From the sequence record MK327932.1: 64,000 nt of DNA; one strand, written 5' to 3'. The DNA comes from Escherichia phage vB_EcoM_G2248. This document shows positions 47,746 through 58,672 of this stretch, piece after piece; position 1 is the first letter of the stretch, and every line of letters starts with the position of its first letter. The notes below the pieces were generated by a model. That model had not been told where the DNA came from and made no database searches. It saw only the letters and a list, made by a program, of their open reading frames with translations. Made by a program: the position numbers and the translations under genes.

Positions 47746-48885
47746 ATGACACAAGAGATAGAATTACGCAATACTGGAATTAAGTTTGCGCATTTCGACG
47801 AAGACTCCGCGACATTTACAAGCATTTCAGAAAACAACTCTGTGATGTATAAGCTGGAAGTGCGCGGATCTAATGCGGATTCTTCCAAACCAGCAAGGAT
47901 TAGATTTAATGGAGTGGAGATCGTCGGGACTGGCTATGAGACTGGCCTAAACTTTAAAGTTCTTACTCCAACTGGACAATTGCACGAAGAAAAGGTATTC
48001 TATGGTCGTGGTGCTGTATTGGCAATGCGTGATTATCTTTCTTTACTGAAAGGGGATTATATTATCGCAATGGCATCACATGGAGAACTATTTGCAGATG
48101 TTGTAAGTGATGGCATATTTGCTAAGTTAGGATCTGTGTCTTTCCCTAATTATATTCTATTACAGCAAATGCCTCGTGTATCGTATGCAGCAATTTACTC
48201 TACTAAAATGGGTAAAATTGTTTGTGAAGGCATGCAAGCAACTCACGGAGAAGGGCAAGATTCATCTATACAGATTGAGAAAGTCTATGATACTATAGGT
48301 GATCTTGCAATTACAGGAACACCACAACGATTTTTAGATTATCCGGTCGAGTATGTTAGCGAAGATGCCGAACATTTCGAGCTAATACAATGGCCTCATG
48401 ATGAGATCAGCGCACCACTTGAAGATTTTAACATCAAGGCAGGTGACAAACTATCAATATCTTTTGAATTGTTCCGTGATAGTGCCGCAGCCGCAGCCAA
48501 CGTAACAGCGCGATTCTTCCATAACTATTTTATGGAGGGGCAATATAAAACTGGCGTTCGCTACAATGCCAGCCAGAAAGATCAATGGGAAAAATTCGAA
48601 GCTGTTTATACTGTACCGGAAGGTGTCGATAGTGTAGTAACTGGTTGTATCAGATATCCAACCAACTCCAATGAAGGTGTTGTTAAGGTTAGAAACATCC
48701 TGATTACTCCTATAAGCGGTGTCGTCAAAACTACCGGACCTACTTCCTTTGGTGTTAACGGTATTAGAACAACTCACATTCAGGATAACGGCAATTTCGA
48801 TAACCCTGTTATGAGTCTTCTTAAACTACCTAGAGATAATAAACATATCACGTCAAACAACTTTAAAGAGTTTGATGTTGATTAA
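47746..48885 (+). CDS. 35: long tail fibre hinge protein gp35
   Basis: 379 aa; synteny 34-35-36-37. Confidence 0.8.
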   Translation: MTQEIELRNTGIKFAHFDEDSATFTSISENNSVMYKLEVRGSNADSSKPARIRFNGVEIVGTGYETGLNFKVLTPTGQLHEEKVFYGRGAVLAMRDYLSLLKGDYIIAMASHGELFADVVSDGIFAKLGSVSFPNYILLQQMPRVSYAAIYSTKMGKIVCEGMQATHGEGQDSSIQIEKVYDTIGDLAITGTPQRFLDYPVEYVSEDAEHFELIQWPHDEISAPLEDFNIKAGDKLSISFELFRDSAAAAANVTARFFHNYFMEGQYKTGVRYNASQKDQWEKFEAVYTVPEGVDSVVTGCIRYPTNSNEGVVKVRNILITPISGVVKTTGPTSFGVNGIRTTHIQDNGNFDNPVMSLLKLPRDNKHITSNNFKEFDVD

Positions 48886-49046: not shown

Positions 49047-49054
49047 TATAAATA
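49047..49054 (+). promoter_or_regulatory. T4-type late promoter TATAAATA upstream of gene 36
   Basis: Exact octamer 34 nt upstream of ATG 49088. Confidence 0.55.
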
Positions 49055-49087: not shown

Positions 49088-50578
49088 ATGGCAGATTTGA
49101 AACATGGATCTACTGTAGGCGGATCTCCCATTTGGACGCAAGGAAACTTGACGATCCAGCCAGCGGGGGACCAGCTTTTCTATAAAGGTCATAAAATCTA
49201 TACTGCGTTTGACAAGCCAACGGCGGAAGATTCTGATTCCGTCAGTGCAACCGAAGGTGGTACATTTCAGAAACTGGTCCATTTTGAGGAAGGTTTAAGC
49301 GTAGGTAGCGCATCCGGTGGAGAAACCAAAAAGAACGGGATCTTTAAAGGCAAGAGTGATGCTGCTAACTTTGATGGTGTAAGTTGGGGTTTGCATTCGT
49401 GGAAATCCATCGGTTTTGTTAATGCTCGTGATGATGTTATCATGGCTTATATTGACACTACCACAGGTGATTTTAAAACTAAAGGGACCATCGAAGGGAC
49501 AACCATTAAAGACACTGGTCAACGCGTCTATAGCCCTGTTAATAAGCCGACGAATAATGATTTAGATTTGGTGTCTCGTCGCGGTGATACTCTCACAGGA
49601 ACATATAACTTAAACACTGTCACTGTTAAACTATCGGTTGATTCGAAATTAATTGCAAGGGGACGTGATTTAATTAATTTTGATGCGACTAAGATCTATT
49701 ATGGTAACGTTCTTGATACGTTGGTATTCCGTAGCAAAGATGAGCCTACCATTTTTGTTAATGGCAAAGAAGGTCGTTTTTATCACACCAACAATAAACC
49801 AACTAAAGCCGATGTTGGACTAGGTAATGTCACCAATGATGCACAGGTTAAACGTGCTGGTGATATTATGGAAGGTAACTTGCAAGCGCCTAGAATGTTG
49901 GCGACAAACGATCCTGCTGGTCCGAATGAATTGGTTCGTTTGAGCTACTTTGAGAAAAAATCAATGGTAGCAAATCCAACAATCATTGGAAACGTTGATT
50001 GGAACACTCTTATTAATCGCGGTATCTATCGTGTGGAAAATGCTGGATCAGGTACTAATAAACCGTCTGATAGCTATTATAACGGCGTTTTGATGGTATA
50101 TCGCCCAGAAGATGCGGTCGGTACTCGTCGAATTGTTCAGGTATACTATCCTGAATCTATTGATCATCCGATGTGTTGGCGTTCTTGTTCTAATGAATCA
50201 TGGACCGCATGGAACTATGTAGATCACCGTAAATTGGCTGATGCTCGCTATGTTAATGTGACTGGCGATACCATGACGGGTGCTTTGACAGTTCCCGCTG
50301 CAAACGGCGTTCGTACAGCAAAAGCCAACTATAATGGTGATAATTGCTACGCTGGACTTAATAGCTTAGATGGTACAGCAATGATTCATCGTGTTAGCGA
50401 TATTAAAGCGCACGAGAAACTAGGCATCACACATGATTCTAAAATTATTTTCGTTAAATCCCGTGACAATACTCAGGACACCGATACATTTGAATTATAC
50501 CACGAAGGACACAAACCAACTCCTGATGATGTTGGTGCTGTTCCGCTTAATGCGGTAATTGATTTTGGTACTTTCTAA
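49088..50578 (+). CDS. 36: long tail fibre distal subunit gp36 (enlarged, 496 aa)
   Basis: N-terminus MADLKHGSTVGGSPIWTQGN matches T4 gp36 start; internal fibre repeats (NKPT...GDTxTG). Confidence 0.85.
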   Translation: MADLKHGSTVGGSPIWTQGNLTIQPAGDQLFYKGHKIYTAFDKPTAEDSDSVSATEGGTFQKLVHFEEGLSVGSASGGETKKNGIFKGKSDAANFDGVSWGLHSWKSIGFVNARDDVIMAYIDTTTGDFKTKGTIEGTTIKDTGQRVYSPVNKPTNNDLDLVSRRGDTLTGTYNLNTVTVKLSVDSKLIARGRDLINFDATKIYYGNVLDTLVFRSKDEPTIFVNGKEGRFYHTNNKPTKADVGLGNVTNDAQVKRAGDIMEGNLQAPRMLATNDPAGPNELVRLSYFEKKSMVANPTIIGNVDWNTLINRGIYRVENAGSGTNKPSDSYYNGVLMVYRPEDAVGTRRIVQVYYPESIDHPMCWRSCSNESWTAWNYVDHRKLADARYVNVTGDTMTGALTVPAANGVRTAKANYNGDNCYAGLNSLDGTAMIHRVSDIKAHEKLGITHDSKIIFVKSRDNTQDTDTFELYHEGHKPTPDDVGAVPLNAVIDFGTF

Positions 50579-50645: not shown

Positions 50646-53600
50646 ATGGCAGATTTACAGAGAATCCAATTTAAAAGAACAAGTACGGCAGGTCGCAAGC
50701 CGGATGCGAATATTCTAACTCCGGGTGAACTTGCTATTAACCTAGCGGATCGAGAACTATATACAAAAGATGACAGCAATAATGTAATTACTTTGGGACA
50801 GTTTCGCGGTGAATTGCCATCTGATGCAAATTTAGATAATTATGGACCTACTGGTAAATTTACTGGCATTTGGTCTAAATCAACTTCAACCAACGCTCAA
50901 CCAACGCATAAATTCCCAGAAGAGAATGCTGTAGGTGTATTAGAAGTATTTGTGGCTGGCCAATTTGCTGGTACTCAGCGATATACAACTAGGTACGGTA
51001 ACGTCTTTATTCGATCTTTGTCTGCTAAATGGAATGGTGTTGATGGTCCGTGGGGTGTGTGGAGAAATATTCAATCCGGTACTCGTCCATTGTCAACCAC
51101 AATTGATCTTAATGATCTAGGTGGCGCGGAACATTTTGGTTTGTGGCGGAATAGTTCAAATACCATTGCTACCTTTGACAGAAATTTCCCAGAAGAAGGA
51201 TCGTCCGCTCAAGGACTTTTAGAAGTATATGAAGGTGGAAACTATTCTCGCACACAGAGATATACGACCAGATTTGGTGTTGTTTATACTCGTTGTCTTG
51301 CTGCTGCGTGGGATGCTACTGCTCCTAAATGGGGACCGTGGCAACAAGTCGGTAACGTCACACCAGCGACTTTCTATGACGGAAACCTGAATGATTTTAA
51401 AACTCCTGGGTTATATAATATTTTAGGCACTGATGCCGTTATTAACTGTCCTACAGGTGAAGGTTTGCCGCCTGTTATTGTTGGTTTACTGGAAGTTAAA
51501 CAGCGTGCTTCCGGTGGTGCTATTTTCCAAAAATTTACTACTGCCGGAACGAGTGCAACTACTCGCGGACGTATTTTTGAGCGTGCATATACTGGTGGTG
51601 CGTGGGGAGCATGGAACGAAGTATATACATCTTATTCTCTGCCAATTACTTTGGGTATGGGTGGTGTTAAATCTCAATTAACAGAGTTAGATTGGCAAAC
51701 ATTTGACTTTATTCCTGGTGGGATGTATAGCGTACCGCTGAATAAAGTCAAGAACATGCCAGCAAATATGGATTGGGGAACGATTGACGGTAACTTAATT
51801 ATGTTATCCGTTGGACCTAGTGAGCATACCGGAACAGGTCGCACCGTTCAAGTTTGGCGTGGTACTGTGACACAAGCTAACTACCGTTATTTTGTCGTTC
51901 GTGTTGCTGGTAATCCGGGAAATAGAACTAATACCGTTCGCCGTGTTGTTGTTGAAGATGGTCGCCACACATGGACGGCGCAGCAAGATTTTAATGGCGC
52001 TGTTAATTTCGGCGGTTCGACCGTATTTAAATCAACTACAACATTCAATACAGAAGTTAAATTCCGCTCATCTAATGCATTTAAAATGTACGGCGGTAAA
52101 TTTGGTACAATTTTCCGTAATGATGGTGAAAGTCTTTATATTCTTTCCACCGACGAAGATGATCAAGATGGAAACTTTAACACAAATAGACCTTTCCGGT
52201 ATCAATTCAAAACTGGTGATGTTACTTTAGGTGGAACTAGCGGTGCTGATATTTTAAGATTAAAAAGTAGTTCGCTTGCTGCTACCTTTGGTGGTGATGT
52301 TAACTTAAGTAAAGGTACATTGACGTTTGCAGCTGGTGGTAAGCAATCACGCGATTACTTCCGGTTTAATCATTGGGGTGATAGCAATAACGCTCGTGAT
52401 AACATTATTCAGTTAGAAGATAGTAAAGGCGCTCATTTTTCCACTGAACGTACTTTAGCGACGGGTGCAATTAAAACTAAATTCTTTGGTGAAGTTGAAT
52501 CCGATGGTCGATTGACTATTAAACGTCCGGGTGATGCTATTGTATTATCGACTACAGCTAGCAACGCTTTGCATATTCGCGGCGATGTTGATGGAAACAA
52601 TAACTGGTATATTGGTAAAGGTGGTGCTGATAATTCACTAGCATTTTATAGCTATGCAACTCAGGCTGGTATACACATCACGAATAATGGCGAGATAGCA
52701 CTTGCGCCACAAAATTTTAATAATGTTAGTATTAGCAAAGACCGCATCTATATCAACGCTACACAGTGGGTTGCTAATCATTCTGGTGCGTGGGATGGGC
52801 AATGGCGCGAAGAAGCACCTATCTTTGTTGATCAGGGTAGTGTTGGAGAAGATAGCTATTATCCACTTATTAAAGGACATAGCCAGATCACAGGTCAAGG
52901 TTATTCTACTAAGGTTGATTTTGGCTTACGTCGTACTCCCCAAACATGGGGACAAGCTGTTATTCGTGTTGGTTCTGCGGAAAACTCTCCGGCTTCTGGA
53001 CGCCCTCAAGGAATATTTGAGTTTCATGCTAACGGAACTTCATATTCTCCTAAAGTTAAAACCGAAGCACTTGCCATCGGTACAGAGTCTATTTGGGGAT
53101 CGCCACATTTAGTTCTCGGTGATAATGACACTGGCTTAATGTGGGGTGGTGATGGACGTATTAACCTGCTTGCTAACGGACAGCATATTGCATCATGGGG
53201 TGTTTTCCATCAAGAACATCCTGGACTATGGTCTGTCGGTGCTGGGTTATGGACAGAAGTCGATAAAGCGATTATTTCTCATGGTCATTTGATTCAGGCG
53301 AATGACAACTATTCGACATATGTTCGTGACATTTATATCCGTTCTGATATTCGCGTGAAGAAGGATTTAGTTAAATTTGAAAATGCATCACAGACACTTT
53401 CAAAAATTAATGGATATATGTACCTTCAAAAGCGAGGATTAAATGAAGACGGTAGCGAACGATGGGAGCCTAATGCTGGTTTGATTGCTCAGGAAGTTCA
53501 ATCCATTTTGCCGGAACTAGTTGAAGGTGATCCGGTTGGTGAGAATCTTCTTCGTTTGAACTATAACGGCGTTATTGGTTTAAATACTGCTGCAATCAAC

Positions 53601-53690
53601 GAACACACAGAAGAAATTTCACTTCTTAAAGAAGAAAATAAACTTCTTCGTGATCGTCTTGCTGCAATTGAGGCTAAATTATTTGGTTAA
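50646..53690 (+). CDS. 37: long tail fibre distal subunit gp37 with C-terminal intramolecular chaperone (peptidase S74-like) domain
   Basis: N-terminus MADLQRIQFKRTSTAGRKPDANILTPGELAINL as in T4 gp37; C-terminal ~130 aa (DIRVKKDLVKF...GYMYLQKRG...LKEENKLLRDRL) resembles autoproteolytic chaperone domains. Confidence 0.85.
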   Translation: MADLQRIQFKRTSTAGRKPDANILTPGELAINLADRELYTKDDSNNVITLGQFRGELPSDANLDNYGPTGKFTGIWSKSTSTNAQPTHKFPEENAVGVLEVFVAGQFAGTQRYTTRYGNVFIRSLSAKWNGVDGPWGVWRNIQSGTRPLSTTIDLNDLGGAEHFGLWRNSSNTIATFDRNFPEEGSSAQGLLEVYEGGNYSRTQRYTTRFGVVYTRCLAAAWDATAPKWGPWQQVGNVTPATFYDGNLNDFKTPGLYNILGTDAVINCPTGEGLPPVIVGLLEVKQRASGGAIFQKFTTAGTSATTRGRIFERAYTGGAWGAWNEVYTSYSLPITLGMGGVKSQLTELDWQTFDFIPGGMYSVPLNKVKNMPANMDWGTIDGNLIMLSVGPSEHTGTGRTVQVWRGTVTQANYRYFVVRVAGNPGNRTNTVRRVVVEDGRHTWTAQQDFNGAVNFGGSTVFKSTTTFNTEVKFRSSNAFKMYGGKFGTIFRNDGESLYILSTDEDDQDGNFNTNRPFRYQFKTGDVTLGGTSGADILRLKSSSLAATFGGDVNLSKGTLTFAAGGKQSRDYFRFNHWGDSNNARDNIIQLEDSKGAHFSTERTLATGAIKTKFFGEVESDGRLTIKRPGDAIVLSTTASNALHIRGDVDGNNNWYIGKGGADNSLAFYSYATQAGIHITNNGEIALAPQNFNNVSISKDRIYINATQWVANHSGAWDGQWREEAPIFVDQGSVGEDSYYPLIKGHSQITGQGYSTKVDFGLRRTPQTWGQAVIRVGSAENSPASGRPQGIFEFHANGTSYSPKVKTEALAIGTESIWGSPHLVLGDNDTGLMWGGDGRINLLANGQHIASWGVFHQEHPGLWSVGAGLWTEVDKAIISHGHLIQANDNYSTYVRDIYIRSDIRVKKDLVKFENASQTLSKINGYMYLQKRGLNEDGSERWEPNAGLIAQEVQSILPELVEGDPVGENLLRLNYNGVIGLNTAAINEHTEEISLLKEENKLLRDRLAAIEAKLFG

Positions 53691-53728
53691 TTAAAATAGC
53701 GGGGAGAAATCCCCGCTAAGGATCTTAA

Positions 53729-54025
53729 ATGGGATATTGGTTCGGTAGTGAAATTAATACTAAAATTGATGCTTTAAAGTGGCATGTTTTTGATATTCCT
53801 AATGGATATGTTCCCGGACGTGCTGGTGTTGCCGTTTTGCGGCATACCGCTCGTGATGGTTGGGGCGATATGCATATTTTCGTTGACGGTGTGGTCGCCG
53901 CGCGTCGTCGTGGTGGTGGGGATTGGGGATTTACGGTTAATGCGTTTGTTCCTGCTGGATGTACTGTCACCTTTGGTCATGGGGGTGTCGGTGGTATTGA
54001 ATACTTTAAATTTATGGAGTTTTAA
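53729..54025 (+). CDS. Gly-rich small protein, paralogue 1 of 3 (gene 38 position)
   Basis: 98 aa, RBS AAGGA; shares W..DIPNGY/W core and GGG(G)D block with next two ORFs. Confidence 0.6.
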   Translation: MGYWFGSEINTKIDALKWHVFDIPNGYVPGRAGVAVLRHTARDGWGDMHIFVDGVVAARRRGGGDWGFTVNAFVPAGCTVTFGHGGVGGIEYFKFMEF

Positions 54026-54027
54026 TT

Positions 54028-54333
54028 ATGGCTGGATGGGTTGCTGGAAGAATGGCTAATGCCATTAGCATTTATGCTAATGGTGGGTGGTTTGGTATCC
54101 CTAATGGTTGGGTGGCTGATTCATGCGGTATTGTGTCTGTTCATGCCGAAGCCGTTGGTGGCGGTGGGGACCTGGACGCAGAATTATATGTAAACGGTAC
54201 TCTCGAATCAGGTCATCACGCTGGTAATGCAGGAAGTTGGGGAGCAAGTTCTTTAGTTGGTGCTGGCGCTACTGTCAGTTTTAGTATTGGTAAAGGAAGT
54301 TTAAACCACTTCCAATTTAGGAGAATGCAATAA
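54028..54333 (+). CDS. Gly-rich small protein, paralogue 2 of 3
   Basis: 101 aa, RBS GGAG; WFGIPNGWVAD, GGGGD. Confidence 0.6.
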   Translation: MAGWVAGRMANAISIYANGGWFGIPNGWVADSCGIVSVHAEAVGGGGDLDAELYVNGTLESGHHAGNAGSWGASSLVGAGATVSFSIGKGSLNHFQFRRMQ

Positions 54334-54635
54334 TGGCATTTTGGGTAGATGGTGCTTTAGGTAATAGAGCAGGTAAAGCGAATCAAGGATGGTTTGATAT
54401 TCCTAACGGTTGGACACCTGACGCTTTCGGCACGGTTTCATTTGGTGCTCATTCTTCTGGTGGTGGCGGTGGTGACTCAGAATTGCTTTTGCATGGCTTT
54501 TGTGTGTCTGGAAGTCATAAGGGTCATGATTGGGGACAGATCCATTCTTGTATTGTGCCGCAGGGAGTAACGATCACGGTAACTACAAACAGGGGTATTT
54601 CCCATCTTCGTTATAGACGCTTGAGCAACCGTTAA
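54333..54635 (+). CDS. Gly-rich small protein, paralogue 3 of 3
   Basis: 100 aa, RBS AGGAGAA; WFDIPNGWTPD, GGGGGD. Confidence 0.6.
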   Translation: MAFWVDGALGNRAGKANQGWFDIPNGWTPDAFGTVSFGAHSSGGGGGDSELLLHGFCVSGSHKGHDWGQIHSCIVPQGVTITVTTNRGISHLRYRRLSNR

Positions 54636-54686: not shown

Positions 54687-54926
54687 ATGGTCTATAATAT
54701 CGTCATTGGTGCTTTGTCTAATTTCGGAATGAAACTATTGTCAAAGTTAATTAGTGAAAAGATGCTCACTAAAATTTTCTTCTATTGCGCTCGTCGTCTT
54801 GCGGCTTATACCAATACGCCAATTGACGATCGTTTCGTGGAAGAACTTTATAAGGAGTTTAATAAAGATCAGTCAGAAGATAGCAACGAGCAAAATAAAA
54901 ATGGTGATAGTCAAGTACCTAAATAA
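54687..54926 (+). CDS. hypothetical protein
   Basis: 79 aa, RBS AAGGAGAA. Confidence 0.45.
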   Translation: MVYNIVIGALSNFGMKLLSKLISEKMLTKIFFYCARRLAAYTNTPIDDRFVEELYKEFNKDQSEDSNEQNKNGDSQVPK

Positions 54927-54959: not shown

Positions 54960-55616
54960 ATGCAAGTTTCTGAAAAAGGGAAAGACTTTGCTATCTCAAA
55001 TGTCCTGCGCGCTATTTTCACAACTAAAAGCACGGAGTTGCTCGTACTTCGTGTTTTTGCTGCCGTCGTGTTGTCCATATTAGCATTTGTCGTTTATAGT
55101 AAAAACGAGTTATTTGCGCTTTATAAAGAGACTCGTTATGAGACTTATGCTCACGTTCTCCAGGTAGAGAAAGACCGCAATTTTGATAATGCAGCACAGG
55201 AGCAGTTACAGATAGTTCATGTGTCGGCTGATGCCGATTTTTCTGCTGTTTTTAGTTTTCGTCCGAAAAACCTAAACTATTTTGTTGATTTGGTGGCATA
55301 TGAAGGAAAGCTACCGCATACAATCGATGAAAAAAATTTAGGCGGATTCCCTATCAATAAAACGAGTGAAGAATATCGTAGGCATCTTTTAGGTAAATCC
55401 TATTTTACCGATAAAGATTTCCAGTATATTCCATCAAGAGAAAAGAAATTAGAGAGTATCGATATAGGGGTTATGTATTCTTGTCCTATATTCAATCTCG
55501 ACAATGTCTATTCTGGTAGTATCTCCATTGCATGGAAGAATAAACCGGATATTGACATTGAGAATTTAGATACTCTTTGCAATCAATCTGCCAGAATCCT
55601 CGGAAGGATTAGATAA
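54960..55616 (+). CDS. t: holin / lysis-inhibition sensor T
   Basis: 218 aa; single N-terminal TM, QEQLQIVHVSADADFSAVFSFRPKNLNYFVDLVAYEGKLP and C-terminal ARILGR nearly as in T4 T. Confidence 0.9.
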   Translation: MQVSEKGKDFAISNVLRAIFTTKSTELLVLRVFAAVVLSILAFVVYSKNELFALYKETRYETYAHVLQVEKDRNFDNAAQEQLQIVHVSADADFSAVFSFRPKNLNYFVDLVAYEGKLPHTIDEKNLGGFPINKTSEEYRRHLLGKSYFTDKDFQYIPSREKKLESIDIGVMYSCPIFNLDNVYSGSISIAWKNKPDIDIENLDTLCNQSARILGRIR

Positions 55617-57913: not shown

Positions 57914-58672
57914 TTACTTGCAAACGTATTGATCTACATCAATTGCGCCACCGAATGTAGGATGACGTTTTTCAAATCTAATAGTTCCGTCGTTTGGTTC
58001 GAAAACGGAGTATTCATATAGATCTTTCTTGCCAACATTCTTATAAAACCCGCCTTTAGTCATAACGGTTTCTTGTACGTTTGCTTTGTGTACGTTGTAT
58101 TCGTCAATGTATACAAAATCAACCATCTTCCCATTTTTAATGGTTACTTTAAGATCTACTGGTTGATTTCCATATTTTGCATACAGTGGCGCTTCTTTAA
58201 TTTTTGTGGAAATTCCATCTTTCATACTCCACTCATAACGAACGGTGCATTGATAGGTAAAAGTTTCGACCTTCGGTTCTTCTACCACTTTTGCTTCCTG
58301 TTTCGGTTGTTCTTCTTCAACCTTTGCAGAAGTCTCTGAATCGCTTTCTGACGCGGTTTCTTCTTTAGGTAATACATTCATCAAGTTTTGGATTTGAGCG
58401 TTGTATACAGCCTCCAGTGGCTGAATCTGCCCGATATTGATCATTGTATCACGAACAGTTTTATTCCAGTTTCGTTGCTCTTGTTTCAGAGACGGATCAA
58501 TCTTAACAGCCTTAACATACACCTCATGAAGTTTAGAGTCCAGTGCGGAGATAGACTCATTAGCACAAATAAACTTCTCTGATTTGGTAGTAGCTTTAGC
58601 GCAATCAAAGGACGCAGCGTTAGCACCGAAAGCAGTAGCAGAAAGAACGATAGCAGCGATAATGTTTTTCAT
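57914..58672 (-). CDS. secreted protein with DUF1311/LprI-like N-terminal domain
   Basis: Signal peptide MKNIIAAIVLSATAFGANA; FDCAKA...FICAN...LDxxLxxxY pattern; E/K-rich linker; C-terminal beta-rich domain. Confidence 0.55.
   Translation of the reverse strand: MKNIIAAIVLSATAFGANAASFDCAKATTKSEKFICANESISALDSKLHEVYVKAVKIDPSLKQEQRNWNKTVRDTMINIGQIQPLEAVYNAQIQNLMNVLPKEETASESDSETSAKVEEEQPKQEAKVVEEPKVETFTYQCTVRYEWSMKDGISTKIKEAPLYAKYGNQPVDLKVTIKNGKMVDFVYIDEYNVHKANVQETVMTKGGFYKNVGKKDLYEYSVFEPNDGTIRFEKRHPTFGGAIDVDQYVCK

Follow-up and report, generated by a model that had tools for sequence, protein, structure and literature searches.

In phage S16, autocleavage of the intramolecular chaperone (IMC) of gp37 uncovers the docking surface for gp38 (PMC7917993), and three conserved Trp residues of gp38, one on each of three helices, occupy the three equivalent hydrophobic pockets that the symmetry of the gp37 trimer provides (PMC6851490). 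Gp38 of the T2/T6/S16 type (PF05268 and PF21721) is encoded after gp37, or is displaced from it in some members of the genus Krischvirus. The three small genes considered here (the trio, A, B and C) likewise follow gp37, and their gp37 has the S74 end with the ...YIR(S)|SD..K motif that is also found in the gp37 partner of gp38. A hairpin between gp37 and the partner gene is common to both arrangements, and the three Trp-tipped helices of gp38 have a possible counterpart in three predicted N-terminal helices of the trio, most of them with a Trp. However, gp38 is one chain of ~260 aa that consists of a beta-helix and a polyglycine-II sandwich of ten motifs, whereas the trio encodes three chains of ~100 aa, predicted to be jelly-rolls, with a single non-conserved Gly run each. 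Unlike gp38 in this comparison, the trio is also found outside the T-even-like phages, in siphovirus-type prophages and in a T7-like phage.

The position directly after the distal fibre gene is shared by the genes for the fibre chaperones T4 gp38, gp57A and the Tfa proteins of Mu, P2 and lambda, which like the trio travel horizontally with the distal module of the fibre. Each of these chaperones is a single gene product with another fold and without homology to the three paralogs, and in contrast to their case the partner fibre of the trio has an intramolecular chaperone of its own. With respect to the predicted fold, comparison was made with the C1q heterotrimer (A, B and C chains) and with TNF-superfamily heterotrimers such as lymphotoxin alpha1beta2, which have no sequence relation to the trio. 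C1q/TNF domains comprise ~130 residues and 10 strands, the trio domain ~80 residues and 7 predicted strands, and the trio proteins are free-standing chains that would trimerise without a collagen or stalk fusion. In the PRD1 spike P5, the C-terminal domain of Bacillus BclA and phage fibres with a C1q domain or collagen repeats, the knob is the fibre's own C-terminal domain and is homotrimeric, whereas the trio consists of three separate products that would join after proteolytic maturation of the fibre.

Organization of the gp37-A-B-C locus

The stretch of DNA that was analysed (the window, 64 kb of Escherichia phage vB_EcoM_G2248, MK327932.1) is a segment of a Krischvirus genome (RB49/JSE-like Straboviridae); Escherichia phage UPWr_E1 is ~96% identical to it across 62 kb. 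The gene for gp35 (47746-48885) is followed by that for gp36 (49088-50578) and by the plus-strand gene for gp37 (50646-53690), a protein of 1014 aa in which Gp34_trimer and gp37_trimer domains precede the C-terminal Peptidase_S74 domain. Downstream of these are three consecutive plus-strand ORFs, A (53729-54025, 98 aa, C-terminus ...KFMEF), B (54028-54333, 101 aa, ending ...FRRMQ) and C (54333-54635, 100 aa, ending ...RYRRLSNR), exactly where a preliminary description of this DNA had placed them. The description had assigned each its own Shine-Dalgarno sequence, and these were found as TAAGGA, GGAG and AGGAG, respectively. B starts 2 nt past the stop codon of A, and the stop codon of B and the start codon of C overlap in TAATG. 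A plus-strand ORF of 79 aa with a hydrophobic N-terminus (54687-54926; phrog_402, annotated without a function) comes next, and then holin gene t (Phage_holin_T, 54960-55616). The trio thus occupies the gp38 slot between an S74-ended gp37 and holin t, as had been stated, with the phrog_402 ORF intervening before the holin. The latter ORF was found directly before holin t in all Krischvirus phages, whatever fills the gp38 slot. The G+C content of the trio is 46%, the mean of the window being 40.4%.

A T4-type late-promoter motif, TATAAATA, is present on the plus strand at 49047-49054, 33 nt ahead of gp36, and is the sole one from there to holin t. In the whole window the number of such motifs was not above chance, and only the position of the one at 49047 is suggestive. 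As this is the only nearby late-promoter motif and it precedes gp36, we infer that the trio belongs to a late gp36-gp37-A-B-C transcript that probably starts at TATAAATA. A sigma-70-like promoter or intrinsic terminator specific for the trio was not found above chance.

Between the stop codon of gp37 and the Shine-Dalgarno sequence of gene A, which abuts it, lies a G+C-rich hairpin on the plus strand (53697-53718, tAGCGGGGA-gaaa-TCCCCGCTa) with a stem of 9 bp and -17 kcal/mol. It scores as a terminator on the minus strand only. The hairpin is kept in the E. coli and Salmonella cassettes, and analogous ones were seen in divergent cassettes and also in the gp37-gp38 gap of phage G2494. One may speculate that it lowers expression of the trio relative to that of gp37. 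In UPWr_E1 (L001) the stem is identical and the loop inverted (gaaa to tttc), which suggests an inversion or recombination via the palindrome that preserved the stem.

Paralogy and conservation of A, B and C

That A, B and C form one paralogous family, as had been proposed, was borne out by BLASTP (B-C, E=3e-15 and 40% identity; A-B, 1.5e-9; A-C, 1.6e-7), with 26-40% identity among the three. At the nucleotide level there is essentially no similarity between the copies, which implies that the duplications are old. A recent tandem duplication was therefore rejected, and the local triplication envisaged in the preliminary description has to be replaced by an ancient one, which has left three orthologous groups in other phages. 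The conserved core consists of W4, [WY]-[FY]-D-I-P-N-G-W, G33, D48, G55 and V-P-x-G. Among the motifs that had been listed as shared, M-x-x-W, the IPNG block and the C-terminal strand are common to the three proteins, but W-F is absent from A, which has V-F-D-IPNG-Y. Nor is the GGGG(G)D loop a common element, as it is located at residue 62 in A and at residues 43-48 in B and C. Each protein contains one Gly run, which is out of register in A and is not conserved across the family, so that being glycine-rich (18-20% Gly) does not define it. The C-termini are specific for the paralog, ...F-M-E-F in A and a basic ...R-R-[ML] in B and C. The N-terminal Trp of B is retained in 14 of 14 aligned cassettes; that of the N-terminal helix of A and C is present in all enterobacterial cassettes and lost in the most divergent ones. 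N-terminal extensions of gene B were seen in its Salmonella and T7-like versions. Neither a signal peptide nor a transmembrane segment was predicted in A, B or C. Elsewhere in the window, amid small early-type genes, positions 57914-58672 (minus strand) encode a protein of 252 aa that clearly begins with a signal peptide; its counterpart at this position in JSE is a protein of different length.

Between orthologs at unsaturated distances, dN/dS (Nei-Gojobori) was 0.08-0.24 for A, 0.07-0.21 for B and 0.09-0.19 for C, and 0.09-0.16 for the adjoining S74 segment. Variable sites were scattered over the N-terminal helix and several loops, and a hypervariable block like that of gp38 was not observed. 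A, B and C are real genes under purifying selection. Diversifying selection is out, given values of 0.07-0.24 that are similar to those of the S74 segment, and the characterization of the family as diversifying was not upheld.

The family is very small, is not named in any library and its members are annotated as hypothetical. A word-indexed search of 5.8 billion clusters returned 32 of them, all annotated as 'hypothetical' and all originating from E. coli, Shigella or Salmonella. When 1.84 billion representatives were searched exhaustively with hmmsearch, ~16 genuine small-protein representatives were obtained. Large proteins matched in the latter search were repeat artefacts (ankyrin and other repeat proteins with 3-19 matched stretches). 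Copy C was present in 4 of 50,697 phage records, a scan of genome contigs gave no match, and a scan of metagenomes gave only four close relatives. No match to A, B or C was found in Pfam at E<=0.1, including GP38, C1q (PF00386) and TNF (PF00229), or in NCBIfam, and a sequence search of the PDB returned nothing better than E=1. The sole PHROG match was to the function-less family phrog_18834, with a borderline E of 0.0015. No homology of the trio to a tail-fibre assembly family was detected in Pfam, PHROGs or NCBIfam, and none of the PADLOC defence models matched at E<=1. A literature search on the trio, UPWr_E1 and G37-3 found nothing about these genes.

Distribution of the cassette and its relation to gp38

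In a census by a uniform local HMM scan with A, B, C and chaperone profiles, every member found belonged to an S74-ended fibre gene followed by A, B and C. S74 was directly upstream in each of the 38 loci that retain upstream sequence, and the order S74-A-B-C was kept throughout. Besides the Krischvirus phages, the trio is carried by siphovirus-type prophages of E. coli (with portal_2, an S78-capsid fusion, a tape measure and a lambda-J-like tip), in which the fibre measures 1121-1236 aa, and Salmonella prophages likewise carry an S74 fibre with the trio. In a T7-like phage the fibre combines a Phage_T7_tail N-terminal domain with S74, and a T7 holin follows the trio. In a further type of context a second fibre gene, of 902 aa, lies downstream of the trio, and two short metagenomic contigs also show an S74 fibre with the trio. 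In the E. coli and Salmonella carrier prophages (L006-L018, L033 and L034) fibre and trio are flanked by the head genes on one side and by the major tail protein gene on the other. Hardly any isolated phage in the collection is related to these prophages; their capsid finds its best match, at 43% identity, in one E. coli phage, and the next ones in Rhodobacter phages.

The copy number is exactly three, with a fixed order and 1:1:1 orthology down to ~25% identity; with A, B and C HMMs trained on enterobacterial sequences, 11 of the 12 ORFs of the four most divergent cassettes were assigned to their positional counterpart. The orthology across cassettes, together with the invariant features specific for each paralog, indicates that the triplication predates the spread of the cassette and that all three copies were kept. 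The fixed number, order and orthology point to three non-redundant subunits of one complex. Interchangeable copies conferring alternative host specificities, as the preliminary description had it, are unlikely on the same grounds.

Decayed cassettes were also encountered. In KFS-EC (L003, 4749-5175) gp37 is followed by a single ORF of 107 aa that combines approximately the first 86 aa of A with a central part of C; gene B is missing, C runs on out of frame at its 3' end, and a displaced gp38 is retained. This cassette looks like one that collapsed through recombination between the paralogs. Another form is that of P0027 and P0031, on 11 contigs of up to 60 kb from related phages, in which residues 1-9 of the phrog_402 ORF (MVYNIVIGA) are joined to ~60 residues from the C-terminus of C. 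In a prophage contig from IMG/VR (L023, 5695-5910), B is truncated to an ORF of 79 aa, and A and C are intact.

Within the Krischvirus genomes compared, the trio and gp38 are complementary. Phages of the G2494 type have gp38 right after gp37 and no trio; JSE, RB49, phi1 and many others, among the matches listed, have gp38 ~55 kb away and no trio. KFS-EC, with its displaced gp38 copy, has only the A/C chimera. UPWr_E1 and G37-3 have an intact trio and no gp38 genome-wide, and the 64-kb window has an intact trio and no gp38; the exclusion is based on these two complete genomes and the window. Gp38 was searched for in UPWr_E1 and G37-3 by tblastn with two divergent gp38 queries (E<=1, no masking), for which cross-type positive controls gave 1e-28 to 1e-33. 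The site of the displaced gp38 is clean and empty in both genomes, with flanks 96-97% identical to JSE; the displaced position matches that in bioRxiv 10.64898/2026.04.02.716166. Gp38 of Krischvirus was found in two places and as two types: that of G2494 (L005, 4202-5002), next to gp37, shares 95% identity with its counterpart in Tequatrovirus Ox2, and the JSE type (L042, 17102-17878) lies ~55 kb off. The two types appear to be independent acquisitions.

The trio itself is not related to gp38. Comparison of the family with a 24-sequence gp38 alignment by hhalign gave a probability of 0.9%, and this together with the lack of a Pfam GP38 match disposes of homology between the two and of the relation to the glycine-rich motifs of gp38 for which a comparison had been recommended. 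The resemblance of the N-terminal 'M-A-x-G-W' to gp38 was likewise unsupported by hhalign.

The slot after gp37 is highly mosaic, and it could be argued that the trio is unrelated accessory (moron) cargo in a post-fibre recombination hotspot, for instance an anti-defence factor acting inside the cell, a factor for superinfection exclusion or a decoy that engages sensors of fibre proteins. The G+C content of the trio, which exceeds the mean of the window, the occurrence of decayed cassettes and the lack of a functional annotation anywhere would fit such cargo. Strict adjacency to one domain across myo-, sipho- and podovirus genomes is atypical of morons, however, and it holds even in the compact lytic genome of the T7-like phage. 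Moreover, the trio is without its own promoter and is coupled to late structural genes, there is no PADLOC match, nor an export signal for a role in exclusion, and it would have to be accidental that trio and gp38 complement each other in their distribution. We consider this explanation very improbable.

Partner fibre, predicted fold and proposed role

The Peptidase_S74 domain of gp37 was identified by Pfam (PF13884, E 7.1e-11, aa 900-959), by a local IMC HMM (136 bits) and by motif alignment. The mature part, aa 1-900 (50646-53345, plus strand), is the distal long-tail-fibre subunit and ends in ...RDIYIRS at the predicted autocleavage site; the chaperone comprises aa 901-1014 (53346-53690, including the stop codon). 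The catalytic S|D-x-x-x-K motif is intact, and YIRS|DIRVK aligns with all other fibres; the predicted course is that the chaperone is released by cleavage once gp37 has trimerised. The cleavage motif ...(D/N)-V-Y-I-R-S|D-x-x-x-K is conserved in all the fibres, whether or not a trio accompanies them. Residues 1-802 of the window gp37 are 83% identical to gp37 of the gp38-carrying G2494. Before the cleavage site an insertion of ~70 aa (53130-53345, gp37 aa ~830-900), which contains the fibre-repeat-like motif 'LGDNDTGLMWGGDGRINLLANGQH', distinguishes the tips of the window, UPWr_E1, L007 and L010 from those of G2494 and KFS-EC; within the tip family I described below, it is a feature of the fibres linked to the trio.

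Trio alleles and fibre-tip alleles reassort, as can be read from sequence comparison. Between the window and prophage L006, A is 98%, B 100% and C 92% identical, whereas the 280 aa before the chaperone are 19% and the chaperone is 41% identical; between L006 and L014 the tips are 78% identical and A and B only 74-78%. A tip or pre-cleavage domain specific for the trio was looked for without success; the tip families and the cleavage motif are common to trio-positive and trio-negative fibres. Tip family I includes trio fibres (window, UPWr_E1 and L007) as well as gp38 fibres (G2494 and KFS-EC), with 62-66% identity between the trio and the gp38 fibres over ~100 aa, and tip family II includes the trio fibres of G37-3, L006 and the T7-like L031 and the gp38 fibre of JSE (40-44%, ~190 aa). 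The S74 domain is the sole element common to all partner fibres of the trio. As no tip type is exclusive to it, the trio, if bound to the fibre, must use a generic feature of S74 processing.

These data also bear on the possibility that the trio is a non-structural factor for the assembly or maturation of S74 fibres, cytoplasmic and absent from the virion, which would template the tip, control IMC cleavage or handle the released chaperone (compare T4 gp38, gp57A and Tfa). Such a factor would occupy the usual position of a fibre chaperone, would be strictly linked to S74 as the only shared element of the partner fibres and would accept very different tips; the cytoplasmic type of A, B and C and the uniformly purifying selection without hypervariable loops fit as well. 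Yet S74 fibres fold by themselves by definition, and the great majority, including that of JSE with a tip of the same family, do so without a trio; KFS-EC is a viable isolate despite its collapsed trio. In addition, a tail-fibre assembly family was not matched in Pfam or PHROGs, the C1q/TNF-like jelly-roll described below is typical of binding heads and is no known chaperone fold, and the absence of gp38, an adhesin in this genus, exactly where the trio is intact would be left unexplained. An assembly factor is therefore judged unlikely.

The fold was modelled with AF2 from family alignments, for C (pLDDT 82, pTM 0.70) and independently for A (pLDDT 85, pTM 0.70). Both models show a short N-terminal helix with Trp4, of low confidence (pLDDT 55-63), and then a seven-strand beta domain. 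In fold comparison the figures were 8.0 for C1QL1, 7.9 for C1q-A and C1q-C, and 7.7 for adiponectin and collagen VIII NC1; among bacterial and viral heads they were 7.3 for BclA and 6.5 for the PRD1 spike P5, the match being a moderate one. CTRP5, cerebellin, CD40L, EDA, APRIL, BAFF, TNF and lymphotoxin alpha/beta are of the same fold class. Foldseek against viral models gave weak matches (E 1e-4 to 1e-2), namely to the C-terminal portions of phage tail fibres, C1q-domain proteins and collagen-repeat proteins. The models thus suggest for the trio the fold class to which trimeric binding heads of fibre tips belong, with a moderate match. Together with the gp38 slot and the absence of gp38 beside an intact trio, this makes a fibre-tip accessory protein or adhesin the best reading of the trio, and here the preliminary description stands.

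C1q/TNF-like domains often homotrimerise, and the paralogs are just 26-40% identical. Three separate homotrimeric tip adhesins could thus be imagined, with different fibres of one virion capped differently for several receptor specificities; the evidence for substitution of gp38 fits this equally. Copy-number variation and lineage-specific gain or loss would then be expected, in contrast to the exactly three copies in fixed order with 1:1:1 orthology. The invariant paralog-specific ends (FMEF in A, basic RR in B and C) suggest complementary roles, the tight translational coupling points to equal dosage, and no diversifying selection was seen. Homotrimeric adhesins are for these reasons decidedly unlikely.

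What we propose instead, tentatively and at a little under an even chance, is that A, B and C together make up a C1q-like heterotrimer, a knob that takes the place of gp38 by docking on the fibre tip after cleavage. In line with the proposal are the strict linkage of the trio to S74 fibres, the tight gene coupling that points to equal dosage, the tolerance of unrelated tips, the mutual exclusion with gp38 and the decay of the cassette in a gp38-bearing phage. A, B and C would belong to the late structural proteins, as accessories of the long tail fibre, and would be produced at about the same level from a translationally coupled operon cotranscribed with gp36 and gp37. Each would fold into a short N-terminal helix and a compact C1q/TNF-like jelly-roll, and one A, one B and one C would assemble into a pseudo-threefold knob. 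After trimerisation of gp37 the S74 chaperone would cleave itself off at ...YIRS|D, and the knob would dock on the exposed tip, plausibly by insertion of the three N-terminal helices into three symmetry-equivalent pockets, a step modelled on single-chain gp38 with its three Trp-tipped helices. As the distal end of the fibre the knob would take part in receptor recognition instead of gp38. Heterotrimer formation, docking, presence in the virion and receptor binding are what we infer for the trio. A wider form of the proposal, which is possible but more doubtful, is that the trio is a portable 'split adhesin', an asymmetric heterotrimeric cap seated in S74-exposed pockets on myo-, sipho- and podovirus fibres and a second solution, of unrelated structure, to the task of gp38.

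The host range of T-even-like phages is now predicted and engineered via gp37 and gp38, and in phages without gp38 such as this one that practice would assign the receptor determinant wrongly. As a tip cap, the trio would represent a new class of receptor-binding module, a separately encoded heterotrimer of C1q-like subunits that has moved among all three tailed-phage morphotypes along with S74 fibres. Phage engineering would then gain a part ready for swapping, and the trio would be an uncommon example of an asymmetric head, made from three paralogs, on a symmetric fibre. The trio is thus a candidate host-recognition device of an uncharacterised family, an ancient three-subunit module tied to S74 fibres.
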